Positions 7,834 to 33,289 are shown, numbered from the stretch's first letter. The stretch is 40,302 nt of DNA from Candidatus Delongbacteria bacterium (GCA_016937995.1 JAFGVM010000071.1:1-40302), one strand, 5' to 3'. Numbers and translations: made by a program. The notes: generated from the letters alone by a model not told the origin.

Positions 7834-7850
7834 CCTGGTCACTGGTCACT
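7834..7850 (-). repeat. Heptamer tandem repeat AGTGACC x2 after the ribE stop
   Basis: Sense strand TGA GAT AGTGACC AGTGACC AGG. Confidence 0.6.
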
Positions 7851-7853
7851 ATC

Positions 7854-8486
7854 TCAATACCCGAGTTCCGTTAAACGATCCATCGTTAATCCAGAGTCTT
7901 TATTTTTTAACATACTTTCTATATACCTTCCGATGATATCAGTTTCAATATTTAATTCAGTCCCGGTCTTCCAGTATTGAGCGGTAGTTCTTTTTAATGT
8001 GTGAGGGATTATAGCAAGTCTAAAATAATTATCATTCACTTCCGCAACCGTCAAACTTATACCGTCAATGCATACTGAACCTTTATGAACAATATATTTC
8101 TTCAGTTCTCCTGGATAATTTATCGTAAATTCTGTTCCAGTAATATTGTTGACTATCTTGGATATTTTTCCCTTCGCATCAACATGTCCCTGAACAATAT
8201 GCCCACCAAGTCTGTCTGAAACTCTCATCGCAGGTTCAAGATTTACTTTTTCCATCAATTTCAATTTATTCAGGGTTGTAAGGTTCAAACTTTCTTTCAC
8301 TGCCTGAACAGTAAAAGATCCTTTATCAACCGCAACAACTGTTAAACATACACCATTGACAGCTATTGAATCATCGATAGCAGCATCCTCGGTTACGATA
8401 GTGCTTCCTACAGTGATTTCTGCACCGTCACCGATGTTTTTGATGTTTTTGATATTCCCTATTTCTTTGATAAGACCAGTAAACAT
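7854..8486 (-). CDS. ribE: Riboflavin synthase (alpha chain)
   Basis: Canonical N-terminus MFTG at ATG 8486; SIAVNGVCLTV, RLGGHIVQGHVD, DGISLTV. Confidence 0.96.
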   Translation of the reverse strand: MFTGLIKEIGNIKNIKNIGDGAEITVGSTIVTEDAAIDDSIAVNGVCLTVVAVDKGSFTVQAVKESLNLTTLNKLKLMEKVNLEPAMRVSDRLGGHIVQGHVDAKGKISKIVNNITGTEFTINYPGELKKYIVHKGSVCIDGISLTVAEVNDNYFRLAIIPHTLKRTTAQYWKTGTELNIETDIIGRYIESMLKNKDSGLTMDRLTELGY

Positions 8487-8487
8487 A

Positions 8488-9252
8488 TTATTCCGTTTCG
8501 TTCTCAATTTCTTTATCTTCAGATTTCATTTTTTCGATAATACTGCCCACTACTCCAGAGAGAACAAAAAATAACATCAGCGGGAATAGCAATGACATTT
8601 TAAACTTTACTACTACGAATATGAGCAGAATAACACTCAGTATCTTAAGGTTTCTTTTTATAAAATTCTCTTTTCTTTTGAACATTATAGGAAAACCCTG
8701 ATATTTTATCCGGGATATCATAAGATATGATACAATGATAGATGTTGCTGTCAACCATTTAAAGTGCTTGAGAGAGCCGTAAGTCTCAAATTCAAAAAGA
8801 ACGAAAGAGATTATTGTCATTGCTGCCGCTGGTGACGGTAACCCTGAGAAGAATTTTTTGGAATGTCCGACCAATTCAGTATTGAATCTTGCAAGTCGTA
8901 TTCCAGTGAACATCAAAGGCAGAAAGGAAAAGAATATTATCAGATGCTTTAGATCTTCCAGTCCTGGATATTTGTCAATATATACATTCTTGTACAGACT
9001 GTACATGAGTATAGAAGGAGCCATTCCGAAAGTAATTATATCAGCAAGTGAATCGAATTCAACTCCAAAATCAGATGTACTTTTTACAAGTCTTGCAACT
9101 TTGCCGTCCAATGCATCGCATACACCTCCGAGAAGAACAAAATAAGCACCCCATATGTAATTCCCTTCTATAGAGGATAATACAGACCAGAAACCGAAGA
9201 ACATATTCCCTATCGTCAGAGAATTTGGAAAGATTGACATCCTTCTACCCAT
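8488..9252 (-). CDS. pssA: CDP-diacylglycerol--serine O-phosphatidyltransferase
   Basis: PNSLT, DALDGKVAR...GVEFDSLAD CDP-alcohol phosphotransferase motif, RLARFN, FSGLPSP; adjacent to psd. Confidence 0.93.
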   Translation of the reverse strand: MGRRMSIFPNSLTIGNMFFGFWSVLSSIEGNYIWGAYFVLLGGVCDALDGKVARLVKSTSDFGVEFDSLADIITFGMAPSILMYSLYKNVYIDKYPGLEDLKHLIIFFSFLPLMFTGIRLARFNTELVGHSKKFFSGLPSPAAAMTIISFVLFEFETYGSLKHFKWLTATSIIVSYLMISRIKYQGFPIMFKRKENFIKRNLKILSVILLIFVVVKFKMSLLFPLMLFFVLSGVVGSIIEKMKSEDKEIENETE

Positions 9253-9260
9253 TTTTACTC

Positions 9261-9944
9261 CTAGTTAAAAAATTCTCCGATCACGGTCTCACCTGCTTTA
9301 ACTTTATCACCGACCTTTACCTTTATATCTGTCTCGTCAGGTAAAATTATATCAACCCTTGAACCGAATTTTATCAGACCCAGCTTTTGAGCCTGTTCAA
9401 CTTCATCGCCTACATCAGCATAACATACTATTCTCTGGGCTATCAGACCGGCTATCTGCTTAACAGTAACGTGATTACCGTTCGCATTTATACCGACAAT
9501 GGCCTGTTCATTATATTCACTCGCCTTATCGTTCCAGGCAGCCATGAATTTACCTTTTTTATAGTTCACATATTCAACTTTACCTTTAACCGGATACCTG
9601 TTTACATGAACATTGAAAACACTCATAAAAATGGATACTATCTGAGATTCCTCCATCCTGTACTCTTCATCCAGGTATTTGTCGACCTTGATCACTTTAC
9701 CGTCAGCCGGAGCGATAATTGCCCTGTCATTTTCATCCTCCATTTCAGGATATCTTTCAGGATCTCTGAAAAACCAGAAAGAAAAGAAAAATACAATTAC
9801 AAAGAAACCCAGAACTACCATCATCAGGTAGGATAGGTATTCATGATAATACATCTGAACGTATAGCACAACTCCTATGATAAGAACTATCCAGAGGATC
9901 TTTCTTATCACCTTACCACTTCCGTTTGCAAGTTTGAAAGCCAT
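9261..9944 (-). CDS. psd: Phosphatidylserine decarboxylase proenzyme (short type)
   Basis: FFRDPER, APADG, IFMSVFNVHVNR, FGSRVD self-cleavage motif. Confidence 0.94.
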   Translation of the reverse strand: MAFKLANGSGKVIRKILWIVLIIGVVLYVQMYYHEYLSYLMMVVLGFFVIVFFFSFWFFRDPERYPEMEDENDRAIIAPADGKVIKVDKYLDEEYRMEESQIVSIFMSVFNVHVNRYPVKGKVEYVNYKKGKFMAAWNDKASEYNEQAIVGINANGNHVTVKQIAGLIAQRIVCYADVGDEVEQAQKLGLIKFGSRVDIILPDETDIKVKVGDKVKAGETVIGEFFN

Positions 9945-9963
9945 ACTGTCTCCCTATATAAAT

Positions 9964-11112
9964 TTATTTTTTGAATGCTTCAAGTATCATTACAAGCTTT
10001 TTATACTTTGAATCTCTCAGAACAATGAACTCGACCCTGTCACCTACTTTGTAATCTTTAGCTTCAAGTAGAGCTTTGCCCATGTCATAGTAGTTATTTA
10101 TCTTAACATTTTCTACTGCTATAATAACGTCACCTATTTCAAAACCAGCTTTTTCAGCAGGACTGTCTGCCTGGATCTTTTCAACAAGTACTCCGTTTGG
10201 TTTTTTATCATCAGTGACCTGATCCGGTAAATCTGCAAGTTTAAATCCGAAATAAATATTTCTGTTGATCTCACCACTCTCTATCAGTGTATTTGCAATA
10301 CTTATGACCTTGTTGATCGGTATAGCAAAACCTATTCCAATGCTGCCTCCACCTTCTTTTGAGTAGATCATTGTGTTCATACCGACAACCTCACCCTCAG
10401 AGTTGACCAGAGGACCCCCGCTGTTACCGGGATTGATCGAAGCATCTGTCTGTATCATATTTTCATAAAAGTGTCTGTCCTTTGCACTGAAACCGAAATT
10501 AATATCAACACCTGATATCACACCAACAGTTATCAATGGATTGTTAACATATTCAAATAGACCATATGGATTCCCGAAAGCGATAACCCACTCACCTCTT
10601 ATCAGTTCTTCATCCGACATTTTTGCAAATTTATGTTCTTCAACGTCTATTTTAAGAACTGCGATATCACTTCTTTCATCAAATCCAACTATTTTAGCCT
10701 GATACTCTTTACCTTCAGTTGTTGTAATTATGATCTGCTTTGCATCTGTAATGACATGATTGTTCGTTATTATGTATCCGTCCGGAGAATAAATAAAACC
10801 ACTTCCTGCACTTGGAATAGCCTTATTTCTGTACTGTGGTGGAAAAAAATTTGAAAAGAAAGGGTCATTGTCAAAAACTGTCTTCACTTTTTGTTTTTTT
10901 ACTTTAACTACATTGATACCGACAACAGACGGACTTACTTCTTTGACAGCTTTAGTAATCGCATTTTCTCTGGAAACATTTATTTCCTGAGATCCATGTG
11001 TAACTACCGGTTGAACTTTTTCCACCCCATCACGGTGAGAATAAAAATAAAAGATCAGTAAGATCAGTGAACCGGTTATTAAACCCGATATGAATGTTCT
11101 TAGATTATCCAT
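9964..11112 (-). CDS. htrA: HtrA/DegP-family serine protease with a single PDZ domain
   Basis: N-terminal anchor; TNNHV, DIAVLK, TDASINPGNSGGPL; C-terminal PDZ (SPAEKAG..GDVI). Confidence 0.92.
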   Translation of the reverse strand: MDNLRTFISGLITGSLILLIFYFYSHRDGVEKVQPVVTHGSQEINVSRENAITKAVKEVSPSVVGINVVKVKKQKVKTVFDNDPFFSNFFPPQYRNKAIPSAGSGFIYSPDGYIITNNHVITDAKQIIITTTEGKEYQAKIVGFDERSDIAVLKIDVEEHKFAKMSDEELIRGEWVIAFGNPYGLFEYVNNPLITVGVISGVDINFGFSAKDRHFYENMIQTDASINPGNSGGPLVNSEGEVVGMNTMIYSKEGGGSIGIGFAIPINKVISIANTLIESGEINRNIYFGFKLADLPDQVTDDKKPNGVLVEKIQADSPAEKAGFEIGDVIIAVENVKINNYYDMGKALLEAKDYKVGDRVEFIVLRDSKYKKLVMILEAFKK

Positions 11113-11208
11113 TTGTTAAACCAAATCTTCCCTGTTCCAAAGTTATAATATTAAATTATGCCTAAATATAATCCTTTATATAGAAGAAAACAATAATAAT
11201 GTTGACTC

Positions 11209-12834
11209 TTAGTTTTTTTGATCTTTGCAGTCAAGGTAATGTTGATATCCACCATCATAGATCTTTATCAGACCATGATCAACTTCAAAAACTCGATTGA
11301 CAAGTTCTTTTAGAAAATATCTGTCATGACTTACAAGTAAAATTGTTCCCTGATATTGCTTCAAGGCATCTAACAGTATTACCCTGGATTTAATATCAAG
11401 ATGATTCGTAGGCTCATCAAGGATCAGACAATTGTGCGGTGTTGAAAGAAGATACGCTAATATTACACGGGCTTTTTCTCCTCCGGAAAGGTACTTTATT
11501 TTTTTATATACTTCATCTCCTCTGAATAAAAAAGATGCTAAAAGATTTCTTACGGACGGTTCTGTCATTTGCTGTAGCTTAGACTGAACTTCTTCAAGTA
11601 CCGTAGCTTCAGAATTCAAATGTTCTAGTGTGGTTTGACCAAAATAACCTATTGAAATACTCGGCCCGATAATGGCTTCACCCTCTGTCATTTTTACCTG
11701 ATGACTGATAACTCTTAAGAAAGTTGACTTTCCGGCTCCGTTCACACCCACTACCGCGATCTTATTTTGCCTTTCAACCATTGCTGTAAGTCCGGAAAAT
11801 ACCTTCTTTTCACTTCCATCTGAATTTTGCCAGCTCTTTCCAAGATCTTTTATAGAAATAACATCATTCCCTCCTCTTGGTATTTCGGCTAATTCAATAT
11901 TGATCTCGTTCTCGTCAGGAACAAGCTCGACCTTCTCTATCTTGTCAATTTTCTTGACCCTGGACTGTACCTGAGCTGCATGACTTGCTCTTGCTTTGAA
12001 CCTTGCGATAAACTCTTCCTCTTTTTTTAACATACTCTGCTGACGTGAGAATTTGGCGGCATTGTTTCGGATCAATATTTCTTTCTCCCTCTCATAAAAA
12101 TTATAATCACCTGAAAAAGTTGTCACCTTTCCATTTGAAACTTCAATTATCTTTTTTACGACCCTGTTCATAAATTCACGGTCATGAGTTGTTAAGAGAA
12201 AAGCTCCTTTGAACTTGACCAACCACTCTTCAAGCCAGATTATAGTTTCCATATCAAGATAATTTGTAGGCTCATCCATCAATATGAGATCAGGGTTCAT
12301 GATAAGAACTTTTGCAAGAGCAATACGCATTTTCCAGCCACTGGAAAAATCTTCTACAGGTTTGCTATGATCTTCAGGAAAAATACCGAGACCCGTAAGT
12401 ATTTCCTGTGCATTGGATTCTATTTCATAACCTCCGATTGCTTCATATTCCACCTGATCATCACCCATTTTTTCTAAAATAGTATCCATTTCACTCTGAT
12501 CCAGTTCAAGATCGGAGAGTCTTGTATGATATTCGTGCAATCTCTCTGAGAGTATGCTGATCCTTTCATTTCCTGAAATAACCTCATCAAGTGCACTTCT
12601 TCCTGACATTTCCTCCACATTTTGAGAAAAATAAGCGATCCTCGTATTATTTTGAATACTTATTGTTCCCTCATCAGGTTTCAATTCACCTACAATAAGT
12701 CTGAAAAAAGTTGTTTTGCCGGTTCCGTTCGGTCCCACCAGACCGATCTTTTCTCCCTGATTTATTTGAAAACTTGCACCGGTATATAATGGAACTCCAC
12801 TCATATTTTTCGTTATATTTGATAAGCTAATCAT
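11209..12834 (-). CDS. ABC-F family ATP-binding protein
   Basis: Two NBDs (GPNGTGKTT, GVNGAGKST), DEPTNYLD and DEPTNHLD, inter-ABC linker FIARFKARASHAAQVQSR, no TM. Confidence 0.93.
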   Translation of the reverse strand: MISLSNITKNMSGVPLYTGASFQINQGEKIGLVGPNGTGKTTFFRLIVGELKPDEGTISIQNNTRIAYFSQNVEEMSGRSALDEVISGNERISILSERLHEYHTRLSDLELDQSEMDTILEKMGDDQVEYEAIGGYEIESNAQEILTGLGIFPEDHSKPVEDFSSGWKMRIALAKVLIMNPDLILMDEPTNYLDMETIIWLEEWLVKFKGAFLLTTHDREFMNRVVKKIIEVSNGKVTTFSGDYNFYEREKEILIRNNAAKFSRQQSMLKKEEEFIARFKARASHAAQVQSRVKKIDKIEKVELVPDENEINIELAEIPRGGNDVISIKDLGKSWQNSDGSEKKVFSGLTAMVERQNKIAVVGVNGAGKSTFLRVISHQVKMTEGEAIIGPSISIGYFGQTTLEHLNSEATVLEEVQSKLQQMTEPSVRNLLASFLFRGDEVYKKIKYLSGGEKARVILAYLLSTPHNCLILDEPTNHLDIKSRVILLDALKQYQGTILLVSHDRYFLKELVNRVFEVDHGLIKIYDGGYQHYLDCKDQKN

Positions 12835-12998
12835 GCTTTCTCCTATGATTTTGTAAAGAGGCGCTAATTTAACGAATAAATTCTCGATTTCATACTATTT
12901 TTAAATTATTATTTGTTTTTTTCATTATAAAAAAAATTGAATTTAACCAATAAATGCAATATCTTCCCTCTTTAAATAATATCAACAGGAGAGAAGAT

Positions 12999-14996
12999 AT
13001 GATCAATGAATTCCAGAAAGAGATCATGGAAGGAATACCGAAAGTACTTCCTGAATTGAAACAATATGATCCTAATATCAACCATGCACCAAAAAGAAAA
13101 GATATTTTATCCTTGGCTGAGAAAAAATTAGCCATAAAAAATGCTTTGAGATATTTTGACAAGGAACATCATTCAGTTCTTGCTAAAGAATTTGCTGAAG
13201 AATTAAAACTATATGGTCGTATTTACATGTACCGTTTCAGACCAAGTTACAAAATAACAGCCAGATCTATAGAAGAATTCCCGCATAAAAGTAAACAGGC
13301 TGCTGCTATAATGCTTATGATATCGAACAATCTTGATCATGCAGTAGCTCAGCATCCTCACGAACTTATTACTTACGGCGGAAATGGAGCTGTTTTTCAA
13401 AACTGGGCTCAGTATAGATTAACTATGAAATATCTTTCTGAAATGACAGATAAGCAGACGCTGGTCATGTATTCTGGTCATCCAATGGGTCTCTTTCCTT
13501 CTCATAAAGATGCACCGAGAGTTGTTGTAACAAATGGAATGGTCATCCCGAATTACTCAAAACCTGATGACTGGGAAAAATTCAATGCACTTGGTGTTTC
13601 TCAGTATGGTCAAATGACAGCTGGTTCATTCATGTATATCGGACCTCAGGGAATAGTTCACGGTACAACAATAACTGTACTTAATGCAGGCAGAAAGATA
13701 GGCAAGGATGGTCTTGGCGGTAAATTATTCGTTACTTCCGGTCTTGGTGGAATGTCTGGTGCTCAGGCCAAAGCAGCTGTCATAGCCGGAGCTATCGGAG
13801 TAATTGCAGAGATAAACCCTAAAGCTGTCCATACGAGACATTCTCAGGGATGGGTCGATGAGGTTTATGAAGATCTTGATGAACTGTTAGAAAGGATCAG
13901 AAAAGCGAAAGCGAACAAAGAAGCGGTTTCTTTAGCATATCAGGGAAATATCGTTGATCTATGGGAAATATTCGTTGAAAAAAATATTTTTGTTGAGATA
14001 GGTTCAGACCAGACTTCGCTTCATAATCCCTGGGCAGGTGGTTATTATCCTGTTGGTCAAAGCTATGAAGATTCAGTTATAATGATGGCTGAAAAACCTG
14101 AGTTGTTCAAAGAAAAAGTTCAGGCATCTCTAAGAAGACACGTTTCAGCTGTAAATGCTTTGACTGCTAAAGGTATGTATTTCTTTGATTATGGCAATGC
14201 TTTCCTTCTTGAATCAAGCAGAGCCGGTGCTGATATAATGAAAGAAGATGGAAATTTTAAATACCCTTCCTATGTGCAGGATATTATGGGGCCAATGTGC
14301 TTTGATTTCGGTTTTGGTCCTTTCAGATGGGTCTGTACTTCATCTGATCCTGAAGATCTGTTGAAAAGTGACAAGATAGCAATAGAAGTTCTCGAAGAAA
14401 TGGCAAAAACATCCCCCGCTGAGATCACTCAGCAGATGCAGGATAATATCAAATGGATAAAAGGTGCTCAGGAGAACAAGCTTGTTGTTGGTTCACAGGC
14501 AAGGATCCTTTATGCTGATGCAGAAGGTAGAATAAAGATCGCCAAGGCTTTTAACAAAGCTATAAAAGAAGGATATATTACTGCTCCTATCGTACTTGGC
14601 AGAGATCACCATGATGTTTCAGGAACTGATTCTCCTTACAGAGAAACTTCCAATATATATGACGGTTCGTCTTTTACAGCAGATATGGCTATTCAGAACG
14701 TTATCGGAGATTCATTCAGGGGTGCTACCTGGGTCTCTATCCACAACGGTGGAGGTGTCGGCTGGGGTGAAGTTATTAATGGAGGTTTTGGAATGCTGCT
14801 TGATGGTACTCCTCAGTCAGACATAAGGCTTAAGTCAATGCTATTCTGGGATGTGAACAACGGTATCAGCAGAAGAAGCTGGGCCAGAAATGAAGGGGCA
14901 GTTTTCGCTATAAAAAGAGCAATGGAAGCTAATCCTGATCTTAAAGTTACCCTCCCGAACATTGCAGATGATGAATTGATCGATGGTTTGTTTTAA
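12999..14996 (+). CDS. hutU: Urocanate hydratase, long form (about 665 aa)
   Basis: Start moved to ATG 12999 after AGGAG; GQMTAGS, YIGPQGIVHGT, SDQTSLHN, GRDHHDVSGTDSP, HNGGGVGWG. Confidence 0.95.
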   Translation: MINEFQKEIMEGIPKVLPELKQYDPNINHAPKRKDILSLAEKKLAIKNALRYFDKEHHSVLAKEFAEELKLYGRIYMYRFRPSYKITARSIEEFPHKSKQAAAIMLMISNNLDHAVAQHPHELITYGGNGAVFQNWAQYRLTMKYLSEMTDKQTLVMYSGHPMGLFPSHKDAPRVVVTNGMVIPNYSKPDDWEKFNALGVSQYGQMTAGSFMYIGPQGIVHGTTITVLNAGRKIGKDGLGGKLFVTSGLGGMSGAQAKAAVIAGAIGVIAEINPKAVHTRHSQGWVDEVYEDLDELLERIRKAKANKEAVSLAYQGNIVDLWEIFVEKNIFVEIGSDQTSLHNPWAGGYYPVGQSYEDSVIMMAEKPELFKEKVQASLRRHVSAVNALTAKGMYFFDYGNAFLLESSRAGADIMKEDGNFKYPSYVQDIMGPMCFDFGFGPFRWVCTSSDPEDLLKSDKIAIEVLEEMAKTSPAEITQQMQDNIKWIKGAQENKLVVGSQARILYADAEGRIKIAKAFNKAIKEGYITAPIVLGRDHHDVSGTDSPYRETSNIYDGSSFTADMAIQNVIGDSFRGATWVSIHNGGGVGWGEVINGGFGMLLDGTPQSDIRLKSMLFWDVNNGISRRSWARNEGAVFAIKRAMEANPDLKVTLPNIADDELIDGLF

Positions 14997-16171
14997 TGAA
15001 AAATAAATGTAATTTTGATAAAGGGATCGACCGTAGAAACACAAATTGTATCAAATGGGATATCAACCATTTGATCTTCGGAGAAAAAGATGTTCTTCCG
15101 ATGTGGGTCGCAGATATGGACTTTGAAGCCCCTCCAAAAGTTATAGAAGCTTTGATCGACAGAGCTAAACATGGTGCCTACGGATATACACTTCATCCCA
15201 GGAGTCTTAAAGAAGCTATCACTGACTGGGAATTCAGACGACACAACTTGAAGATCCAAAGCGACTGGATATCATTTTCTCCCGGGATCGTTCCTGCTGT
15301 TAATTTCTTCGTGGACTGTTTTACAAAAGAAGGTGATGGAATTATAATTCAGACACCTGTCTATTATCCGTTCATATATGCCTGTGACAGGAACAACAGA
15401 AAACTTGTAAATAATCAGCTTATCCAAACTAAAAATGGGTATGAGATCAACTTTGATCAGTTAGAGGATCAATTATCTGATCCGGATACTAAAATGATGA
15501 TAATTTCAAGCCCTCACAATCCTGTTGGAAAAGTTTTCACTGCAGATGAACTTACTAAGATGGCTGAATTCTGTGCTGATAACGGTGTTATCCTTATTTC
15601 AGACGAGATACATCAGGATATTATTTTCAGTGGAAATGAACATATATGTACTTCCTCGCTGTCAGAGAAAATTGCTCAGAATACGATAACCTGTGTAGCT
15701 CCAAGTAAAACATTTAATCTTGCAGGTCTCGGTTTTTCTGCATTGATCATTCCTGATGAGGAAAAAAGGAATAAATTTCAGAAATACATGGATGCAAAAG
15801 GTATTCATGGATCGAACCTTTTTGGCATAATTGCCGGAGAAGCTGCTTACAGACACGGAAATGACTGGCTGAACGAGCTTCTGATCTACCTTGAAGGTAA
15901 TATTGATTATATGGAGAATTTTTTCAAAGAACATCTACCTAAGATAAAAATGCAACGGCCTCAGTCAACTTATCTTGCCTGGCTGAATTTCAGGGAGTAT
16001 GGTTATTCTCAGAAAGAACTTGTCGATAAAATGGTCAAAGAAGCAAAGCTTGGTCTAAACGATGGTTCAGCCTTCGGAGCCGGTGGAGAAGGTTTTATGA
16101 GACTTAACTTTGCCTGCCCACGGTCAACAATAGAAGAAGCTATGAAGAGAATGAAAACTGTGTTTTCATAG
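14996..16171 (+). CDS. patB: MalY/PatB-family PLP-dependent C-S lyase / aminotransferase
   Basis: PMWVADMDF, SPHNPVG, ISDEIHQD, APSKTFNLAG (PLP Lys); TAATG overlap with hutU. Confidence 0.9.
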   Translation: MKNKCNFDKGIDRRNTNCIKWDINHLIFGEKDVLPMWVADMDFEAPPKVIEALIDRAKHGAYGYTLHPRSLKEAITDWEFRRHNLKIQSDWISFSPGIVPAVNFFVDCFTKEGDGIIIQTPVYYPFIYACDRNNRKLVNNQLIQTKNGYEINFDQLEDQLSDPDTKMMIISSPHNPVGKVFTADELTKMAEFCADNGVILISDEIHQDIIFSGNEHICTSSLSEKIAQNTITCVAPSKTFNLAGLGFSALIIPDEEKRNKFQKYMDAKGIHGSNLFGIIAGEAAYRHGNDWLNELLIYLEGNIDYMENFFKEHLPKIKMQRPQSTYLAWLNFREYGYSQKELVDKMVKEAKLGLNDGSAFGAGGEGFMRLNFACPRSTIEEAMKRMKTVFS

Positions 16172-16200
16172 TGGTCAGTGGACAGTGATCAGTGGTCAGT
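16170..16200 (+). repeat. Heptamer tandem repeat AGTG(G/A)(T/A)C x4 after the patB stop
   Basis: AGTGGTC AGTGGAC AGTGATC AGTGGTC AGT, starting within the TAG. Confidence 0.85.
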
Positions 16201-16206
16201 ACTTAA

Positions 16207-16434
16207 CTACTCGTCATCCGGGCGCATTGTGTATCCTTTTTTCGCCATCTTGATAGCTTCCATCAATTCATTTATTATCTTTATACATTTATCATTTTTA
16301 TAGAAACCACAAGTAAAATCACCTATGTACAAAGTACTGTGACCTGGAATATTGGGATGATTTTTATAACTGACAATATCCCCACCTTTCAATAAATAAA
16401 TACTTTCACCTCTACTGTTCATGATCGCAAACAT
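16207..16434 (-). CDS. Small hypothetical protein (75 aa)
   Basis: AAAGGAGG RBS 4 nt before ATG; own consensus promoter; fills the intergenic gap. Confidence 0.75.
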   Translation of the reverse strand: MFAIMNSRGESIYLLKGGDIVSYKNHPNIPGHSTLYIGDFTCGFYKNDKCIKIINELMEAIKMAKKGYTMRPDDE

Positions 16435-16486
16435 AGTACCTCCTTTGTCATATTTATCTAATAGCTATTTTCTAACTTATGTATTT

Positions 16487-16515
16487 ATTTTAATAAAATT
16501 CAGTTAATTTTGCAA
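16487..16515 (-). promoter_or_regulatory. Promoter of the 75-aa ORF
   Basis: Minus strand TTGCAA-17 nt-TAAAAT. Confidence 0.65.
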
Positions 16516-16519
16516 GAAT

Positions 16520-16547
16520 AAAAAAAGGCGTATATCCATACGCCTTT
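16520..16547 (-). terminator. Terminator of the M18 peptidase gene
   Basis: Minus strand AAAGGCGTAT-GGAT-ATACGCC-TTTTTTT. Confidence 0.85.
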
Positions 16548-16550
16548 ACA

Positions 16551-16583
16551 ACTGACCGGTGTTCACTGTCCACTGGTCACTGG
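16551..16583 (-). repeat. Heptamer tandem repeat after the M18 peptidase stop
   Basis: Sense strand CCAGTGA CCAGTGG ACAGTGA ACACCGG TCAGT, between stop and terminator. Confidence 0.8.
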
Positions 16584-16592
16584 AAAGGATTT

Positions 16593-17876
16593 TTAGTACT
16601 CTAAAAATCCTTTCATAGCTTCGATCATGTACATATGATCATCTACTCCGCAAGTCTCTCTGGTGGAATGCATTGCCCACAAAGCATTTCCAACATCAAC
16701 AGTCCTGATGCCGATATTTGTTGCTATCATTGAACCGATCGTTCCTCCGCCTCTTACATCAGACCTGTTCACAAATTTCTGATATGGTATCTTTTTCTTC
16801 TTGCATATCATCTCAAATACTGAAGATGATTCTGCAGTTGTTGCATATCTTGTATTCGCATTGATCTTTATCACCGGACCTTTGTTTATATAAACTGTGT
16901 TCTTATCATCGAACTTTCCACCGTAGTTAGGATGAAAAGCATGTGCTCCGTCAGCGCTCATGTAATATGATACTGAAATCGCTCTGAAATAATCCTCTCT
17001 ACTGCCTGAAAGCCTTTCAAGAATATCTGCTGTCAATGATGAATTCCCGCCGTTTGTGGTCGAAGAACCCACTTCCTCATTGTCATATAATGCAATGATC
17101 TGGGTACTGTCTGATGTTTTAGCATCAAGAATTGCTTTAATAGACGCATGTACCATAGATTTATTATCAATATTCCTGTTACTTATGAACTCATCGTTCA
17201 TACCTGATATCACCCCTTTCTGAACAGGATAGATCTCCATATCATAATTTACGATTTCAGAACCTTTTACTTTTAACTTTTTTGCGATCTGTTCTTTCAT
17301 CCATTCATCGGTCAGTTTTTCTTCACTAAGACCGATAACAGGGACTAAATGATCCTGCGGGTTTATATTGTAAGCTTTATTAACATCACTGTTATAATGG
17401 ATCGCAAGTTGCGGAATATTGAAGATCAAATTGTCCAGTTCAACAAGTTTTATCTCATAACCTGATCCCTTTTTGATAACCACTCTTCCAGCAAGAGAAA
17501 GGTCCTTATCCATCCAGCTGGCAAATATCGGCCCTCCGTAGATCTCTGTTGCAAGTTGAACACAACCTCCTTTTGTGTAAAGAGAGTTGGGTTTAAGTTT
17601 GATCGCCGGTGAATCAGTATGTGATCCGATCATTCTAAAACCTGCAACATTAGGTTTCTTCTTCCCTATTATACCTGCTATCAAAGAAGTATTATGTCTG
17701 ACAATGTAAAATTTATCACCTGCTTTTAGATTCCACTTTTGAGATTCTTCAAGTTTTTTATATCCTGCCTTCTTTAGAATCTTTTCTGATTCAACCACAC
17801 AGTGCGAACTTGTTGGTGAATTATCGATGAAACTATTCAGATCTTTTGCGATCTCCAGCATCTCTTTATTATTCAT
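16593..17876 (-). CDS. M18 family aspartyl aminopeptidase
   Basis: GSHTDSP, QLAIH, IDNK, DNEEVGS, SADGAHAFHPNY, AMHSTRE. Confidence 0.93.
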   Translation of the reverse strand: MNNKEMLEIAKDLNSFIDNSPTSSHCVVESEKILKKAGYKKLEESQKWNLKAGDKFYIVRHNTSLIAGIIGKKKPNVAGFRMIGSHTDSPAIKLKPNSLYTKGGCVQLATEIYGGPIFASWMDKDLSLAGRVVIKKGSGYEIKLVELDNLIFNIPQLAIHYNSDVNKAYNINPQDHLVPVIGLSEEKLTDEWMKEQIAKKLKVKGSEIVNYDMEIYPVQKGVISGMNDEFISNRNIDNKSMVHASIKAILDAKTSDSTQIIALYDNEEVGSSTTNGGNSSLTADILERLSGSREDYFRAISVSYYMSADGAHAFHPNYGGKFDDKNTVYINKGPVIKINANTRYATTAESSSVFEMICKKKKIPYQKFVNRSDVRGGGTIGSMIATNIGIRTVDVGNALWAMHSTRETCGVDDHMYMIEAMKGFLEY

Positions 17877-17890: not shown

Positions 17891-19552
17891 TTATTTAATT
17901 AAGACCATTTTATTTGCCTGAACTATTCCATCGTCCGTTCTAAGCACACCGTAGTAAATTCCACTTGATAATTTATCTCCGTTAAATTCAAATGAGAACT
18001 TTCCGGCTGTGAATTTATTGTCAACAACTTTCTCGACCAGTTTTCCTGCCTGATCATATATATTTATGCTTATATTTTGATGTTTATCATTGATGAAAGA
18101 AATTGTTGTTGTCGGATTGAACGGATTCGGATAATTTTGTTCTAATTGTAAATTGTCCATTGTAAATTGTTCATTGTCTATCCCTGTATTTTTAACAAGC
18201 TGGACATTTACTTCAGTTGCTTCTTTAAAAACCCCTGTATCATCAGTAACTACGATATTATCTATTGTCTGAGGAAAGTACCCCGGACAGGAAACGGTCA
18301 TTGTATATGTTCCCGGTATCAGTATTCTGTAATAATCCCCTTTATCAGGATCTGTGTAATAATCTTTGTCAATACCTGCTATCTGGATAGTTGCTGCAAC
18401 AGGTACACCTGACACAGAATCAGTGACTACCCCGTAGATACCTTTATGAGCAGCTGATAAGTACCAGAACATTGAATTTCTATTCTCTTGCCAATAAACC
18501 GGCATTGAGCTGTAAGAAGGCCATTTTGTACCGGATATTTCCAGTGTCATGTCCATATCATTATGATATCTGTAGTTCCAGTCCTGCATTCCGCCATCTA
18601 TTGAATACCAGTCACATCCATTGGTTACTCCATCCGTAAATGAAGAACTGCCGAACAATCTTGGATTCCTGCTTGCATAACCATAAGCCAGCCAGTAAGC
18701 ATGAGCATCATCAGGAGCTGCAGCATAGGCACCATTTGCTACACCAAAATCCTTATCAAATACAAAATTGGCAACTTCAGCTCCACCGTGAAAGTTTGTC
18801 GATAGAATAAAGTTGTGTGCTTTTGTCCAGCTGATCATTGCCTGGTTCTCAGGAATTGTGCTGACTAATATCGTATCAGGTTCATAATAAGTTCCTTCAG
18901 GGAAATTTCTGTTTAAATCAATATAGTTAGCATTATATCTCTGTCCAAGTTCATTTCCATCTGGATTCATTAATGGCATTATGTATAGCTCAGTGTTGTT
19001 TACTATAAACTGCATTGTATCATTATCTGCGTAATATCCTTGAAGAATATCCTCGATCATATACATTTCCATTTCCATTCCGGTAACTTCATCACCGTGC
19101 ATTGTCGAAACGAACTTTACTTCTGGTTCTGCTTCTTCTATGTCAAGGCTGTCTGTGATCTTAAGTACCCATAATTCTCTTCCCTGTACAGTCGTTCCTA
19201 TCTGTATTCTTTGACATATCTCAGGATATCTATTCTGCCAAGCAAGCATTGAATCTCCAATAGACTGGTTGTCGTAGAATTGAGTTGCATCTTTAGGGAT
19301 TTGCAATGGTGTCCAGCTAACAGTGTAACCTGCTTCAGTCAACATGGAAAATTCTTCTTCTGTTACATATACCTTAATAGATTCAGGTAATCCTTTTGCA
19401 GTGAAACTTGTTCGGTCTATATCAATTTTGTTGTCCTGAAGAAATTTTATATCATCAAGACCTGATATCTTTACTACTGCATATTCGTGAAGTTTTACGA
19501 AAGCTGAAAGCATTGTTAGAGATATTAGTATTATTAGTATCGTTCTCTTCAT
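17891..19552 (-). CDS. Secreted M14 zinc carboxypeptidase (N/E-like) with carboxypeptidase regulatory-like domain and T9SS/FlgD-type C-terminal domain
   Basis: Signal peptide; MHGDE, NPDG, RYNAN..DLNRNF, NFHGG, GGMQDWNY, TLEIS; C-terminal QNYPNPFNP...KMVLIK. Confidence 0.92.
   Translation of the reverse strand: MKRTILIILISLTMLSAFVKLHEYAVVKISGLDDIKFLQDNKIDIDRTSFTAKGLPESIKVYVTEEEFSMLTEAGYTVSWTPLQIPKDATQFYDNQSIGDSMLAWQNRYPEICQRIQIGTTVQGRELWVLKITDSLDIEEAEPEVKFVSTMHGDEVTGMEMEMYMIEDILQGYYADNDTMQFIVNNTELYIMPLMNPDGNELGQRYNANYIDLNRNFPEGTYYEPDTILVSTIPENQAMISWTKAHNFILSTNFHGGAEVANFVFDKDFGVANGAYAAAPDDAHAYWLAYGYASRNPRLFGSSSFTDGVTNGCDWYSIDGGMQDWNYRYHNDMDMTLEISGTKWPSYSSMPVYWQENRNSMFWYLSAAHKGIYGVVTDSVSGVPVAATIQIAGIDKDYYTDPDKGDYYRILIPGTYTMTVSCPGYFPQTIDNIVVTDDTGVFKEATEVNVQLVKNTGIDNEQFTMDNLQLEQNYPNPFNPTTTISFINDKHQNISINIYDQAGKLVEKVVDNKFTAGKFSFEFNGDKLSSGIYYGVLRTDDGIVQANKMVLIK
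18144..18178 (-). repeat. Heptamer repeat nACAAT(G/T) x5 inside the M14 linker
   Basis: Sense strand GACAATG AACAATT TACAATG GACAATT TACAATT, encoding DNEQFTMDNLQL. Confidence 0.8.
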
Positions 19553-19567
19553 AGTTTTTCCTTTTCT

Positions 19568-19587
19568 CCACAGGTTAAAACCTGCGG
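19568..19587 (-). repeat. REP-like palindrome between dapH and the M14 gene
   Basis: Sense strand CCGCAGGTT-TT-AACCTGTGG with one G-U pair and no U tail. Confidence 0.5.
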
Positions 19588-19640
19588 TTAATTAAGTTAT
19601 ATACCGCTGAGATAGGCTAACTAACTGTCCACTCCGAAAG

Positions 19641-24067: not shown

Positions 24068-24096
24068 AAATTAGCCTCTACATATTAAAATTGCAA
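24068..24096 (-). promoter_or_regulatory. Promoter of lptF; predicted start site at the ATG (leaderless)
   Basis: Minus strand TTGCAA-17 nt-TAATTT-6 nt-ATG. Confidence 0.55.
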
Positions 24097-24110
24097 TTAA
24101 ATAAAAAACG

Positions 24111-24136
24111 AAAAAAGGGCGTATGAATACGCCCTT
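24111..24136 (-). terminator. Terminator of the tricorn gene
   Basis: Minus strand AAGGGCGTAT-TC-ATACGCCC-TTTTTT. Confidence 0.85.
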
Positions 24137-24160
24137 AAAGAAATTATCATTCATAACCGA

Positions 24161-27235: not shown

Positions 27236-27244
27236 TTTTTCCTC

Positions 27245-27814: not shown

Positions 27815-27947
27815 TATCTCCTCCAAAAGTTAAATTCTCAATACGGTAAACTTATTAAATCAATACACACTTTGGCAAGTCTTTTTAAAATAATTCCTTA
27901 CTAAAATCATTTTTTTCAATAATAATTATATTTTCTGTAATTTTCAA

Positions 27948-27976
27948 TTGCGTAAATGATAACTAGGCATTATATT
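27948..27976 (+). promoter_or_regulatory. Promoter of the large GNAT gene
   Basis: TTGCGT-17 nt-TATATT. Confidence 0.55.
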
Positions 27977-28097
27977 TATGCGAACTATTCAATCTCGCAC
28001 ATTCCACCTCGCACAAAACCCTAATAAAACAATTAGCATTTTATCAGTTAACTTAAATCTTAGATGCTATAGTTACACATAAAAAAAAGGAGGTTAA

Positions 28098-31000
28098 ATG
28101 TCTAAAATTAAAATCGTGGAATATAAAAAAGATTACGCAGCAGGAGTTGCAACAATGTGGAATTGTTCTACAGATGGTTGGAACGGAGCTGATTTTTCTA
28201 CGACTGAAAAAAAAGTATTATTAAAAGAAAGTATGTCACCGCATGTTAATTTATTTTTAGCAGTTGATGAAGCTGTAAAAAGTGATGAACCTAAAGTTGT
28301 TGGGTATTGTAAATTATCAAAGGACTCAAAAGATGAGAACGCTCTATATATTGCGTTGTTAAGTGTTATACCTGAATATTTTAATAAAAAGGTCGGGAAG
28401 GCACTTGTTCTGGAATCGGTCAAAAGAACAATTGAACTAAGTTATCCGCGATTATATTTACATACCTGGAGTGGAAATACAAGAGCTGTTCCTCTGTATA
28501 AAAAAACAGGCTTCTTCTGGGAACAGGGTCAGGAGATCCATCTAATAAATCATATTCCATTTGTACTGAATTGTGATGCTGTAAAAGATTATTTTAAAAA
28601 AGTTGACTGGTATAATGACAGCAAAAGAAAAATCGATATTACTCCAGACGGAAGAAAAGACAATAAATTTGAGTATTATACATATTCCTGGGAAAAGAAC
28701 AAAAAGAAATTAGTGCTTGAGTTCGATAAGTGCGGAAAGGGTCTTAGAAAGATCGATTGTGATGATTATACTATAACAGCTACTGTTTGCAATAGAGATC
28801 TTAGTTTCGGCAAAAAACATAAGATATCCTATGAATTCATCAATAAATGCTCAAAACCATTAAAGATCGAAATGAAAGGTATCAGTAATGAAGGAATTGA
28901 ATTCAAGTATAATTTTAAAACAGAAGTTAAGAAGACTCTTAAGACCGATGCTGAATTCTTTGTTAATCCTATAACTGTTGAACAGGACAGAAGAGGAACT
29001 CATCCAAAGATCTGTACAAACATTAAGATCAATGGTAAATTAGCTGCATTTAAATCAGGGATAGTTCCCAAATTCCCGTTGTACGTAAATCTGTTGAACA
29101 AAGCTGAATTCAACTATTCCGGACAGAAAGAAGAAATGTACTTGAACTGTGAAAGTTTTCTTGATGAAAAAGCAAGATTTGAATTCGATCTTAGTTATGG
29201 AGATGGTATCATATTTGAAAATCCGAAAGTATCGTTCGAACTGAAGGCAAATGAAAAGATCTCAATACCTGTTAAAACGATCATAAACAAAGGATATCTT
29301 TATTCAAAAAAGTTTGATATTACTGCAATACTCCAGAACGGTAAGAAAATAAAGTTCAATGAAACTGTTGTGGCCAGAGCATATACTCATAAAAGTATGG
29401 GATTCAATGAAACTGAACACCGTTATGAGTCAAATATCGGTAAATTCGCTTTGAATATACTAAAGAAAAGGCAAAATTGTTTTACATATTTTCTAGATCA
29501 TGAAGTTAACGGACAGGAAATATTCTTTCCTACTCCAAAACTGGGACTACCTTATACTGATGAATTCGATCATAGAGAAGTGGATAGAGTCGAATACACT
29601 GAAGAAAAAAACTCTTCTGTCATGAAAGGTATCTATACATCTGAGAATATCAAAGATCTTGAATTTGCGATCTGCTACAGACTATTCCCTAATGGCATCA
29701 TAGAAAAATGGATGGAATTCTCTAACACCGGAAAGAAAAAACTTGGTAAAGATATTATCTATTGTGACAGATTTGTTATCAATCGTGAAAATATGGTTTT
29801 ACCTTACAAGAACAAATTCGTGAAGATCCAGACAGGAGTTGATCATAACCTGAATAAATTTGATTCAAAGCATTTTACTGAAAACTGGATCTATTCCGGT
29901 GATAAGAAAAAAAGTGCAGGTATAACCTGGCCAGAAGAGTATGAGTTAAAGCTGGTAGAGTGGTATTTTGCAATAGAATATTCTCTTGAAGGGCTAAAAC
30001 CCGGAAAGAGCATGATAACCAAGCCTATAACTTTTTTCCTGAATACTTTTGATCTTAAGAACTTTAGAAATTTTGTTCAGAAGAACAGTAAGCTAAAAGA
30101 AGTCAGTATTTCGCGATCTGCAGAATTGACGTTGAACGGTCAGAACCCTTTCATCCGTAAAAACATCAAAGTTGAATTGAAAGAAGCAAGGATCATTCCA
30201 CTGAATGCCGAACTTAGTATTTCATCCTCAACAAAAGCTTTTAAAAAACAGCATTTCAGTTTAAAGGAAGGATCTAACCTATCAGGTCTGAGTGCAAAGA
30301 TAGAAATAAGATCTGATAAAGATATTGAGTTGGTCAACTGCAATATCCGTCAAAAAGCACATGAATCTAATGTTGTAAAAGCTTTATTCCCGATGAGAAA
30401 TAGGATCAAATTAACTGAAACTACAGAAGAAAGCAAAAAGGTATATTCTGTTGACAATGGTACTTTATGCTTTAAAACTTCACCTGATTTTGCTCCTAAT
30501 ATCTTTTCTCTTAAGCATAACGGGATCGAATGGGTGGATTCTTCTTTCCCTCAAACGTGTTCAAAATCATGGTGGACACCATGGTATGGCGGATTATTCA
30601 TGAATATTGGCGGATTCAGTGAAAAAGAACTTCTGGAAGAAAAATTATCTGCTGAATTTGTTAAGATCGAGGATAATTTAAATAATAAATGGAAGGGTGT
30701 AAAAATAATCGTAAAAGTCGTTAAAAATGAAGAATACAAAGGTTTAACTATCGAACAATATCATCTTACACTGCCAGGAACTCCAGTTGTATTGAACTTC
30801 AATAAGATCATTAACAGATCAAAAAAATACTTCAACTCAAGCTATTATAAACTTTCCTTTTTCAACAGGGGGGAAAAAAATATCAGGGATCATTACTGGA
30901 GGTATTTCAACAACAATGATGACATATGCAAATTGTATCACGGTTATGAGAACCTTAATATTTCAGTTGATCACGATAAAGTAACTTCACTGAACTGTGA

Positions 31001-31217
31001 TGGTATTGATAATAAAATTTTATTCTTTCACCCGAATAAAATTGAATATATCGCAGCTTGTGCAAATGAAGCTGTGATACCAAAAGTATCTGCGGAAGAA
31101 TTCAATGTAAAAAATGGGTCATCATTTGTAACTTCCTATGAATTTATGATATTCACAGATATGGATATCAATTATAAGGAATTAGAAGACCTTAAAAATA
31201 TCCGGTTCGAAGTATAA
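28098..31217 (+). CDS. Large GNAT-family N-acetyltransferase (N-terminal GNAT plus about 880 aa of unknown C-terminal domains)
   Basis: AAGGAGG RBS; acetyl-CoA motif LLSV.PEYFNKKVGKAL and TWSGNTRAVPLYKKTGF. Confidence 0.85.
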   Translation: MSKIKIVEYKKDYAAGVATMWNCSTDGWNGADFSTTEKKVLLKESMSPHVNLFLAVDEAVKSDEPKVVGYCKLSKDSKDENALYIALLSVIPEYFNKKVGKALVLESVKRTIELSYPRLYLHTWSGNTRAVPLYKKTGFFWEQGQEIHLINHIPFVLNCDAVKDYFKKVDWYNDSKRKIDITPDGRKDNKFEYYTYSWEKNKKKLVLEFDKCGKGLRKIDCDDYTITATVCNRDLSFGKKHKISYEFINKCSKPLKIEMKGISNEGIEFKYNFKTEVKKTLKTDAEFFVNPITVEQDRRGTHPKICTNIKINGKLAAFKSGIVPKFPLYVNLLNKAEFNYSGQKEEMYLNCESFLDEKARFEFDLSYGDGIIFENPKVSFELKANEKISIPVKTIINKGYLYSKKFDITAILQNGKKIKFNETVVARAYTHKSMGFNETEHRYESNIGKFALNILKKRQNCFTYFLDHEVNGQEIFFPTPKLGLPYTDEFDHREVDRVEYTEEKNSSVMKGIYTSENIKDLEFAICYRLFPNGIIEKWMEFSNTGKKKLGKDIIYCDRFVINRENMVLPYKNKFVKIQTGVDHNLNKFDSKHFTENWIYSGDKKKSAGITWPEEYELKLVEWYFAIEYSLEGLKPGKSMITKPITFFLNTFDLKNFRNFVQKNSKLKEVSISRSAELTLNGQNPFIRKNIKVELKEARIIPLNAELSISSSTKAFKKQHFSLKEGSNLSGLSAKIEIRSDKDIELVNCNIRQKAHESNVVKALFPMRNRIKLTETTEESKKVYSVDNGTLCFKTSPDFAPNIFSLKHNGIEWVDSSFPQTCSKSWWTPWYGGLFMNIGGFSEKELLEEKLSAEFVKIEDNLNNKWKGVKIIVKVVKNEEYKGLTIEQYHLTLPGTPVVLNFNKIINRSKKYFNSSYYKLSFFNRGEKNIRDHYWRYFNNNDDICKLYHGYENLNISVDHDKVTSLNCDGIDNKILFFHPNKIEYIAACANEAVIPKVSAEEFNVKNGSSFVTSYEFMIFTDMDINYKELEDLKNIRFEV

Positions 31218-31241
31218 TAAAGGAGCTCATTTACTTAAGCT

Positions 31242-31272
31242 AAAAGCTCTCCCCTTTCGCGGGAGAGTTTTT
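31242..31272 (+). terminator. Terminator of the GNAT gene
   Basis: AAAAGCTCTCCC-CTTTCGC-GGGAGAGTTTTT. Confidence 0.8.
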
Positions 31273-31434
31273 AATTTCAGTTTAAGTTTATAGATTGAAC
31301 TTGATCTTTTATTAGATTATTTTTATTCAATATTTTCTAAAAATAAATCTTGCAGAATGAAAATAATCAAAGTTTATTTCACATGGTAATGAAGTATTAG
31401 TTAATTAATTAAACTTCGATATTTGAGGAGATAA

Positions 31435-31983
31435 ATGAAAAGAATAGGCTTAAGAATAAAGGCTAAAAGGGAAAGCATGGGTCTTCAGATAAAAGATCTA
31501 TCCGGTATTATTGAAGTTTCATCAAGCCTTATCTCACAAATTGAAAAAGCAAAAGCTTATCCTTCTATTTTCACTTTAAAAAAAATAGCAGAAGCATTGA
31601 ATACAACTATCAGTGAATTACTTGGCGAAAATGAGAACAGGGCTGTAAAACCGGTTATGAGATTAAATAATAGAAAATTTGTAAGGCAGAATGATAACGG
31701 AACATCTCTTTTTCTTTTATCTAATCATGATCCTCTAAAACAGATGGAACCTTATCTGGTACATTTTGAGCAAGGTTCTGATTCCTCAGAAATCATGACC
31801 AGTAATTATCCCTGTCAGGAATTCTGCTATATTTTGAAAGGTAATATTGAAGTTAAGAGAGACAAGAAGAAGATCCTTCTGCACGAAGGTGACAGTTTTT
31901 ACTTTAATTCTCACGAAAAGCATATTTTCAAGAATATTGATAAAACAGAAACAGAATTGATATGGGTTGTTAAATTAAATTAA
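31435..31983 (+). CDS. XRE-family HTH transcriptional regulator with cupin sensor domain
   Basis: IGLRIKAKRESMGL..SSSLISQIEK..PSI.TLKKIAEAL; cupin EFCYILKG..GDSFYFNS..H; GAGGAG RBS. Confidence 0.92.
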   Translation: MKRIGLRIKAKRESMGLQIKDLSGIIEVSSSLISQIEKAKAYPSIFTLKKIAEALNTTISELLGENENRAVKPVMRLNNRKFVRQNDNGTSLFLLSNHDPLKQMEPYLVHFEQGSDSSEIMTSNYPCQEFCYILKGNIEVKRDKKKILLHEGDSFYFNSHEKHIFKNIDKTETELIWVVKLN

Positions 31984-32032
31984 AAATTAACATTAAATAT
32001 TGAGAAATACAATCAAATCAAAGGAGAAGAAC

Positions 32033-33259
32033 ATGACTAAAAGAACTATCGTAGCAATGCCGGGTGACGGTATCGGTAGAGTTGTCCTTGACGAAGCTAT
32101 CAGAGTTTTATCTGCAGCCGGTTTCGAGGCTGATTACGTTGAAGGAGACATTGGGTGGGAATTCTGGTGTACAGAAGGTAATCCCCTTCCACAGAGAACT
32201 ATAGACCTTCTTGAAAAGCACAAAGTTGCTCTGTTTGGAGCTATTACTTCAAAACCTAAAGATGATGCATTCAATGAACTGGCACCTGAACTTCAGGCTA
32301 AAGGTCTTGTTTATTCAAGCCCTATTGTAGGTCTAAGACAGCATTTTGGCCTTGATATTTGCTTAAGACCATGTAAATCTTACATCGGTAATCCTCTTAA
32401 CTTTATCAGAAGAGGTCAGGGTAATGCTATAGAAGAACCTGCAGTTGATGCACAGATATTCCGTCAGAACACTGAAGGCCTTTACGGTGGTGTTGAATGG
32501 TCTAATCCTCCTAAGCAGGTACATGACGCTCTAATGACACACCCTAAGTTCGTTAAAAACTTTGGATCGACTCCTGTTGAAGAACTTTCAGTATCTACCA
32601 GAATTTTCACAAAGAAAGCTACTGAAAGAATTCTTAGAGCAGCTTTTGAGCATGCTAAGAAATACGGTTATAAATCAGTTACTGTTTGTGAGAAACCAAA
32701 TGTGATCAGAGAAACTTCCGGAATGATGTATAAAATGGCTCAGCAGATCCAAAAAGCTGATTACCCTAACATAGAACTTTGGAATACTAATATTGACGCA
32801 CAGATGATGTGGTTAACTAAGAATCCTGAGAACTATGGAGTTATCGTGGCAGGAAATATGTTCGGTGATATCGTTTCTGACGGTTTTGCAGGACTTATCG
32901 GTGGACTTGGATTCGCTTGTAGTGCACAGTATAATCCTGAAACAGGTGTTGCTGTATTTGAGCCTACTCACGGATCAGCTCCAAAGTACGCTGATTATGA
33001 AACTTCAATTGTAAATCCAATTGCAATGATCGAATCAGCATGTATGATGCTTGATTATATTGATGAGCAGGAATGTGCTAAGAAGATCAGAAAAGCGGTA
33101 GCTGACGTTATTTCTGAAGGTAAAGTAAGAACTTATGATATGATGAAGATGACCGGCAGAGCGGATGTTTGTGAAAAAGGTGCTGCTTCAACTCAGGAAA
33201 TGGCACAGGCTATTATTGATAAAATGCAGGGTGGAAAATGCTGCTGTGGATGTAAGTAG
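32033..33259 (+). CDS. Isocitrate/isopropylmalate dehydrogenase-family enzyme (homoisocitrate dehydrogenase-like)
   Basis: Start moved to ATG 32033 after AAGGAG; PGDGIG, RQNTEGLY, KPNV, NMFGDIVSD, FEPTHGSAP. Confidence 0.9.
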   Translation: MTKRTIVAMPGDGIGRVVLDEAIRVLSAAGFEADYVEGDIGWEFWCTEGNPLPQRTIDLLEKHKVALFGAITSKPKDDAFNELAPELQAKGLVYSSPIVGLRQHFGLDICLRPCKSYIGNPLNFIRRGQGNAIEEPAVDAQIFRQNTEGLYGGVEWSNPPKQVHDALMTHPKFVKNFGSTPVEELSVSTRIFTKKATERILRAAFEHAKKYGYKSVTVCEKPNVIRETSGMMYKMAQQIQKADYPNIELWNTNIDAQMMWLTKNPENYGVIVAGNMFGDIVSDGFAGLIGGLGFACSAQYNPETGVAVFEPTHGSAPKYADYETSIVNPIAMIESACMMLDYIDEQECAKKIRKAVADVISEGKVRTYDMMKMTGRADVCEKGAASTQEMAQAIIDKMQGGKCCCGCK

Positions 33260-33263
33260 ATGT

Positions 33264-33289
33264 CCGTGGACTGTGGTCAGTGGTCAGTT
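33264..33289 (+). repeat. Heptamer tandem repeat after the dehydrogenase stop
   Basis: CCGTGGA CTGTGGT CAGTGGT CAGTT, between stop and terminator. Confidence 0.8.

Follow-up and report, generated by a model that had tools for sequence, protein, structure and literature searches.

Heptamer arrays at gene ends in a Candidatus Delongbacteria genome share one strand polarity

Short tandem arrays of 7-nt units occupy the edges of intergenic spacers in a Candidatus Delongbacteria genome with one fixed polarity: the G-rich strand of an array runs away from the gene that it adjoins. Several of these arrays lie in a stretch of 40,302 nucleotides (GCA_016937995.1, JAFGVM010000071.1:1-40302), hereafter the window, which is one whole contig of this 2.75-Mb genome (G000; 34.6% G+C, 99 contigs). 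A preliminary description of the window had reported nnCAGTG heptamers after the stop codons of five genes and had proposed to read them either as sites in the 3′ untranslated region (3′-UTR) to which a multimeric RNA-binding protein or a nuclease would bind, or as footprints of a mobile micro-element directed at gene ends. We consider it rather probable that the window arrays are ordinary members of a genome-wide set of strand-asymmetric heptamer repeats, polar and quick to turn over at the level of DNA, and not a sequence-specific 3′-UTR site. The same class of repeats is already described in Xanthomonas, cyanobacteria, and Beggiatoa, under labels such as STRR-like repeats or G-rich heptamer SSRs.

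A lag-based scan of the genome found 131 period-7 arrays, against 14, 18, and 18 arrays at lags 8, 10, and 11, respectively. This count is a lower bound, because nine of the 131 arrays reach contig ends. The arrays are sharp and homogeneous, with 3-5 units and a modal copy number of 4 (detection is limited below ~2.5 units), and no gradual decay was seen at their borders, where identity falls to background on both sides. We counted 54 consensus units among the 131 arrays, 126 of which join a single cloud linked by single substitutions. The unit profile is A-A-G-T-[G/T/C]-A-[G/T], and the G-rich strand contains 28.6% G and 3.8% C. The nnCAGTG unit is indeed present at the window sites, but it is a minor flavour genome-wide, with ~10 loci. 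Genes were called with our own codon-usage open reading frame (ORF) caller, which yielded 2275 genes with approximate starts; only 16 of the 131 arrays sit deep inside called genes, even though 91.7% of the genome was called coding.

Besides these gene calls, an ORF-only test was run for independence from our own caller, with the 126 arrays whose G/C skew is clear. The feature sought was the end of an ORF of 100 codons or more between -25 and +12 nt from the 5′ edge of the array; it was present in 52/126 cases on the G-rich strand and in 4/126 cases on the C-rich strand, while the same test gave 5.5% at random non-coding positions. According to the gene calls, 49 of the 59 arrays whose 5′ neighbour ends with its stop codon lie within 12 nt of that stop (median, 1 nt); when it is the 3′ neighbour that presents its stop, this is true of 6 of the 39 arrays. 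With a stop as the nearest gene end, 48 arrays have their G-rich strand directed away from the gene and 15 toward it. Where the nearest gene end is a start, the corresponding counts are 23 and 8 (p = 0.011), and they are soft because the start codons are approximate. Because the 5′-to-3′ direction of the G-rich strand leads away from the adjoining gene, this strand is the sense strand past a stop and the antisense strand before a start. The preliminary description had seen only the first half of this rule: the strand bias past stops is real, but the true rule is wider and covers starts too. Genome-wide randomness of orientation and position, which it had named as fatal to its observation, was looked for, and both proved non-random, so the finding stands.

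The gaps between co-directional genes show the same order. Forty-four of them hold only a G-rich array, 24 only a C-rich array, and seven a G-rich followed by a C-rich array; no C-then-G layout was found in these gaps. Three G-then-C pairs that fold well are discussed below; in others, the arms are unrelated and no folding is seen (z of -0.2 and -0.6), yet the order is kept. Because a G-then-C pair reads G-first on both strands, the polarity is a property of the DNA and not of transcription.

The features of the window that bear on this pattern are given here, with positions counted from its first nucleotide.

6544-6566, minus strand: ribBA array, 3.3 period-7 units from the ribBA stop codon (6564-6562)
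7834-7850, minus strand: ribE array, two exact heptamer units, 3 nt past the TGA stop (7856-7854); a weak hairpin and ribBA lie downstream of the array, all within the rib operon
16170-16200, plus strand: patB array, 4.4 units, G-rich, overlapping the TAG stop (16169-16171)
16207-16434, minus strand: orphan ORF of 75 amino acids (cargo) between the patB and M18 arms
16524-16547, minus strand: terminator-like hairpin with a T tail, 3 nt beyond the end of the M18 array
16551-16583, minus strand: M18 array, four to five units, G-rich on the minus strand, 9-10 nt past the TAA stop (16595-16593)
16583-16614, minus strand: M18-end hairpin, perfect 14-bp stem with a 4-nt loop, in which the last M18 codons pair with 10 nt past the stop
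19623-19633, minus strand: array claimed at dapH; no repeat by any test applied
~33259-33289, plus strand: dehydrogenase array, ~4 units (two degenerate, the last two exact), directly past the TAG stop (33257-33259)
33290-33314, plus strand: terminator-like hairpin with a T tail, abutting the dehydrogenase array

The gene names at these sites were upheld by NCBIfam, with riboflavin synthase, PatB C-S lyase, and M18 aminopeptidase at three of them and a DapH-type acetyltransferase and an isocitrate/isopropylmalate-type dehydrogenase at the remaining two. The ribE, patB, and dehydrogenase arrays were recovered by Tandem Repeats Finder, and the M18 array was recovered by inverted-repeat and motif scans. 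When up to one mismatch was allowed, the unit CAGTGNNCAGTG had 11 matches in the window versus 0.98 expected, a number reached by 0 of 100 shuffles. The ribE, patB, M18, and dehydrogenase sites account for nine of these matches and dapH for none; there, positions 19623-19633 were absent both from the Tandem Repeats Finder list and from the motif scan at one mismatch or fewer. Four of the five arrays that had been reported are thus confirmed, and the fifth is withdrawn. The first reading had also missed two things, namely the ribBA array, which includes the start codon of the next gene (6558-6556) and has no G/C skew, and the fact that the patB and M18 arrays complement each other as the two arms of a single inverted repeat.

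Turnover of the arrays was followed in G001 and G002, two fragmented genomes of the same genus as G000. The comparison of filled and empty sites that had been suggested for the window gave a uniform answer: the arrays at ribE, patB, M18, and the dehydrogenase are absent in both relatives, as are the arrays at two loci on another contig (C73). Aligned to G001 and G002, the ribE array is a 12-nt insertion between the stop codon and the hairpin. At the two C73 loci of G000, a G-arm and a C-arm fill the spacer from the stop codon to the ribosome-binding site; in G001, one locus has overlapping genes, and the other has a dispersed hairpin repeat of another kind. A single contig from another study (X4, depth 3.4) has 17 nt fewer across the patB array, which is too weak to be taken as a copy-number polymorphism. 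The one RNA sequencing run that was compared gave almost no coverage.

These data bear on the first proposal of the preliminary description. An RNA element of the 3′-UTR would tune 3′-end stability or termination, either as a G-rich tract to which a nuclease or a multimeric RNA-binding protein attaches or by acting against Rho or as a spacer. It would fit the strong sense-strand bias past stops, and the excerpted text of a report on Xanthomonas states that most repeats are transcribed there (PMC4692102). It would also fit the two window arrays that lie between a stop and a terminator-like hairpin; this layout had been correctly noted, since hairpins with T tails directly follow the M18 and dehydrogenase arrays. 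However, a terminator-like hairpin follows only 5 of 52 stop-adjacent arrays, compared with 300 of 2175 other genes; the stop-array-terminator layout is thus peculiar to certain places and does not hold generally. The ribE array, moreover, is inside the rib operon. The 54 units have only a loose profile in common and no shared core, genomes of the same genus do not conserve the arrays, and close to starts it is the other strand that corresponds to the mRNA. All three findings argue against a sequence-specific 3′-UTR site, a proposal that found no support here, and we regard an RNA element of this kind as unlikely.

The second proposal, a mobile micro-element at gene ends, fared better. The patB arm (16170-16200, G-rich on the plus strand) and the M18 arm (16551-16581, C-rich on the plus strand) are 84% complementary over 31 nt and lie 350 nt apart. 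The 75-amino-acid ORF between them has no Pfam or NCBIfam family, and none of the phylum's other 15 genomes was found to contain it; its sole database relative is one 95%-identical cluster. A promoter-like site and the M18 terminator are also located in this segment. In G002, the whole segment is missing and the two genes are joined by an 85-nt spacer with a shared terminator; in G001, it is missing as well and a cupin gene abuts M18. It should be noted that 84% arm identity alone is no proof of a single event, because independent arrays of the same family are already ~70% complementary. One insertion is nevertheless the economical reading, given that two of the ~10 loci of this flavour adjoin each other and that the whole segment is missing in both G002 and G001.

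Cargo between arms recurs elsewhere in the genome with genes of the TIGR02436 (four-helix-bundle) family, which is not the case in the window, where the cargo is the orphan ORF. As had been stated in the preliminary description, there is no TIGR02436 gene in the window: all six matches in the genome are on other contigs. The association with this family that it had proposed to examine was found, with five of the six matches lying between inverted arrays, G-arm first. At the TIGR02436 site on C73, G001 carries another cargo gene and no arrays. The sixth match is weak, a 114-amino-acid ORF directly upstream of the genome's single reverse transcriptase gene (PF00078, 362 amino acids; C40:8473-9895), and it resembles Avd of a diversity-generating retroelement because of this adjacency. 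In relatives, arrays lie within ~110 nt of TIGR02436 genes at five of eight loci, twice as direct and not inverted flanks. Among 16 genomes of the phylum, AGT-type array matches numbered 152 in G000, 101 in G002, 23 in G001, 8 in G007, and 2 in G004, with none in the other 11. Matches to TIGR02436 occurred in G000, G002, G004, and G007, and the 11 array-free genomes had none. This co-occurrence is descriptive only, because it covers three or four genera and the related genomes are not independent.

Neutral polymerase slippage would offer another origin: heptamer microsatellites would arise anywhere and survive where selection allows, with no machinery and no link to TIGR02436. The sharp, homogeneous arrays of 3-5 units with a mode of 4 agree with this, always within the detection limit given above, as does their rapid gain and loss between relatives, and a slippage rationale for heptamers is cited in the excerpted text of PMC4692102. 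Yet neither a strand polarity fixed with respect to the adjoining gene nor the lack of C-then-G pairs would be expected from slippage, even with selection. Neither does it predict the restriction of the arrays to 5 of 16 related genomes of similar composition, nearly those with TIGR02436, or the placement of five of six TIGR02436 genes between arrays when there are 131 arrays among 2275 genes. We therefore hold slippage to be an improbable explanation. Instead, the fixed polarity of the DNA, the cargo, and the co-occurrence with TIGR02436 together indicate a DNA-level process.

Under our preferred reading of the arrays as DNA-level polar repeats, they would arise at the ends of genes through local insertions or expansions, and such a gain may sometimes rewrite the last codons of a gene and supply its stop. 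Their presence in 3′-UTRs would be incidental, a consequence of which places tolerate such DNA and of the polar process that generates it; this process would be linked to TIGR02436 genes. A more specific version is that the arrays may be scars of a polar DNA-end process tied to Avd-like TIGR02436 proteins. Breaks between genes would be resected as far as the gene on either side, G-rich heptamers would be added to each 3′ end, and the ends would be rejoined, sometimes trapping cargo. Such a process would explain the polarity, the occurrence of G-then-C but not C-then-G pairs, and the non-complementary arms. It would also explain the spacers replaced from stop to ribosome-binding site, the rewritten last codons, and the genomes shared by arrays and TIGR02436. 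Although it agrees with all that was observed, we put it forward as a quite improbable conjecture.

Several observations weigh against the reading of the arrays as DNA-level polar repeats. Judging from the counts at the other lags, ~10-14% of the arrays could be due to chance. A minority of arrays breaks the polarity rule (15/63 on the stop side and 8/31 on the start side), and the start-side counts are, as said, soft. The two window arrays between a stop and a terminator are probably transcribed, which makes a role at the RNA level possible, and three of the G-then-C pairs fold well as RNA (z of -5.6, -3.2, and -3.1). G001 has 23 array matches but no TIGR02436 match at 88% completeness, and the descriptive nature of the co-occurrence counts here as well. 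Finally, the analysis turned up neither an enzyme nor a target-site duplication or a donor copy, and gain by insertion thus rests on presence and absence in two fragmented relatives. As to the mobile micro-element of the preliminary description, the lineage-specific gains at spacer edges, the arms around cargo, and the co-occurrence with TIGR02436 speak in its favour, but no transposition mechanism came to light, and the proposal is supported in part.

Related repeats were described by Rehm et al. (2015), whose heptamers GGGAATC in Xanthomonas and GGGGA(C/T)T in Nostoc were read as G-quadruplex elements (PMC4692102). According to the excerpted text of that report, these share with the arrays studied here the 7-nt tandem units, a modal copy number of ~4, and a strong excess in non-coding DNA. 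The placement is shared too: the G-rich strand is coding within 50 bp past a stop, overlap with the stop included, or non-coding within 50 bp upstream of an ORF. The repeats lie nearer their 5′ neighbour whatever the ORF orientation, occur as inverted pairs, and vary in length among close relatives. Unlike them, the Delongbacteria units are AT-rich (A-A-G-T-N-A-K, or nnCAGTG in the window) and come as 54 variants in one genome versus one dominant unit, in another phylum. The excerpted text makes no link between the repeats and TIGR02436.

The G-quadruplex reading that was put forward for the heptamers of Xanthomonas and Nostoc would account for the placement rule and for the modal copy number of 4, both of which match that report (PMC4692102, excerpted text). 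However, four or more GGG tracts are found in only 3 of the 131 arrays, four or more GG tracts in 10 of 131, and the window unit does not have any G tract. Because only 3/131 arrays are G4-capable, the published rationale does not carry over, and we deem this explanation extremely improbable here.

Another likeness is provided by MacGregor (2015), who reported TAACTGA direct repeats in Beggiatoaceae, Cyanobacteria, and some Bacteroidetes (PMC4679880). In the excerpted text of that article, there are 2-43 intergenic copies, with one orientation upstream of starts and the reverse right past a stop, as here. Also as here, close relatives have shorter repeat-free spacers and contigs end in repeats, and a role in rearrangement was suspected (PMC4679880). 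The differences are that TAACTGA is a single, mostly start-proximal unit, read as a binding site for a translational regulator (PMC4679880, excerpted text), while the Delongbacteria units are diverse and most of the arrays are stop-proximal. Neither TAACTGA nor its complement is among the 54 consensus units. Heptanucleotide elements are also listed in Geobacter in the excerpted text of Aklujkar et al. 2009 (PMC2700814).

Two other families of small repeats invite comparison. The short tandemly repeated repetitive (STRR) sequences of heterocystous cyanobacteria are tandem heptanucleotide repeats dispersed in intergenic DNA. In general description, they are like the Delongbacteria arrays in being intergenic tandem heptamers, and the taxon differs. 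Repetitive extragenic palindromic (REP) sequences each consist of one imperfect palindrome with a fixed sequence, and RAYT transposases mobilise them. Like the arrays, REPs and bacterial interspersed mosaic elements (BIMEs) are small non-coding repeats found past stops and between operon genes, with hairpins and fast turnover. Unlike them, the arrays are tandem heptamers of many sequences and often lack a complementary partner. A literature search returned no paper naming TIGR02436 and none joining heptameric repeats with a four helix bundle; the link between such repeats and TIGR02436 genes that the preliminary description gave as established may derive from the database entry of the family.

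Heptamer arrays at gene ends have thus been seen in several phyla without an accepted function. The Delongbacteria genome offers a clean case, as its units are almost never G4-capable and obey the same placement rule, which removes the main published rationale. The two published rules, sense past stops and antisense before starts, reduce to one geometric rule. The arrays are tied to TIGR02436 at both the locus and the genome level, which points to a polar process acting on DNA. In practical terms, they break assemblies (9/131 are at contig ends) and can rewrite C-termini, and they are therefore relevant to the annotation of metagenome-assembled genomes.

Two of the gene ends in the window have further peculiarities. 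The 14-bp hairpin at the end of M18 (16583-16614) is lacking in the G002 orthologue; located at the array junction, it resembles a fold-back copy of the gene end and may be a template-switch scar. The dehydrogenase has a Cys-rich C-terminal extension of ~10 extra codons (33228-33259, ...QGGKCCCGCK), which is not found in three same-genus copies. The gene downstream of it in G000 differs from that of the same-genus copies, and the dehydrogenase array hence marks a synteny break. No clear decayed array was detected within the extension, as in-phase identity is 1-5 of 7 per unit, and the presence of such an array is suggestive only.

Two candidate regularities at the array edge were rejected. A fixed 5′ boundary motif (ATAG) was not upheld, since TAG occurs at the 5′ edge of 16/48 stop-adjacent arrays versus at the 3′ edge of 13/48. 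Likewise, TAG was not significantly enriched as the stop codon of array-bearing genes (17/52 vs 475/2184, p = 0.064).

Some period-7 DNA is found within genes. In the window, positions 18144-18177 (minus strand) are read in frame as the linker before a type IX secretion system (T9SS) type A sorting domain (...IDNEQFTMDNLQLEQNYPNPFNP...). Such linkers account for 15 of the 29 in-gene period-7 arrays, ~250-260 nt before the stop codon (one in the window and 14 in other genes of G000). Their units belong to the same family as those of the intergenic arrays but are free of in-frame stops. The NYPNPF tail is carried by 55 genes in G000. Phase-variable T9SS tails were considered and discarded: none of the intergenic arrays precedes an out-of-frame sorting domain, and all 15 arrays with the motif downstream are in-frame and in-gene. 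The adjacent 38 nt (18102-18139), which code for NYPNPFNP, had a very high summed depth in metagenome contigs, many of which diverge on both sides. This pile-up is expected, because the motif is common to many genes and organisms.

A heptamer array (C40:7462-7516) was also noticed ~1 kb from the reverse transcriptase locus. Dispersed repeats of other kinds are present as well. One of ~60 nt, with a 7-bp hairpin, is found at 19553-19622, past the dapH stop and ahead of the following start codon; BLAST gave 13 matches in G000, there are ~19 matches in G002, and a copy in G001 fills a spacer that is occupied by heptamer arms in G000. Another, of ~65 nt, is located past a terminator at C73:23985-24052; it is absent from this position in G001 and has several matches in G002, with 79-87% identity.

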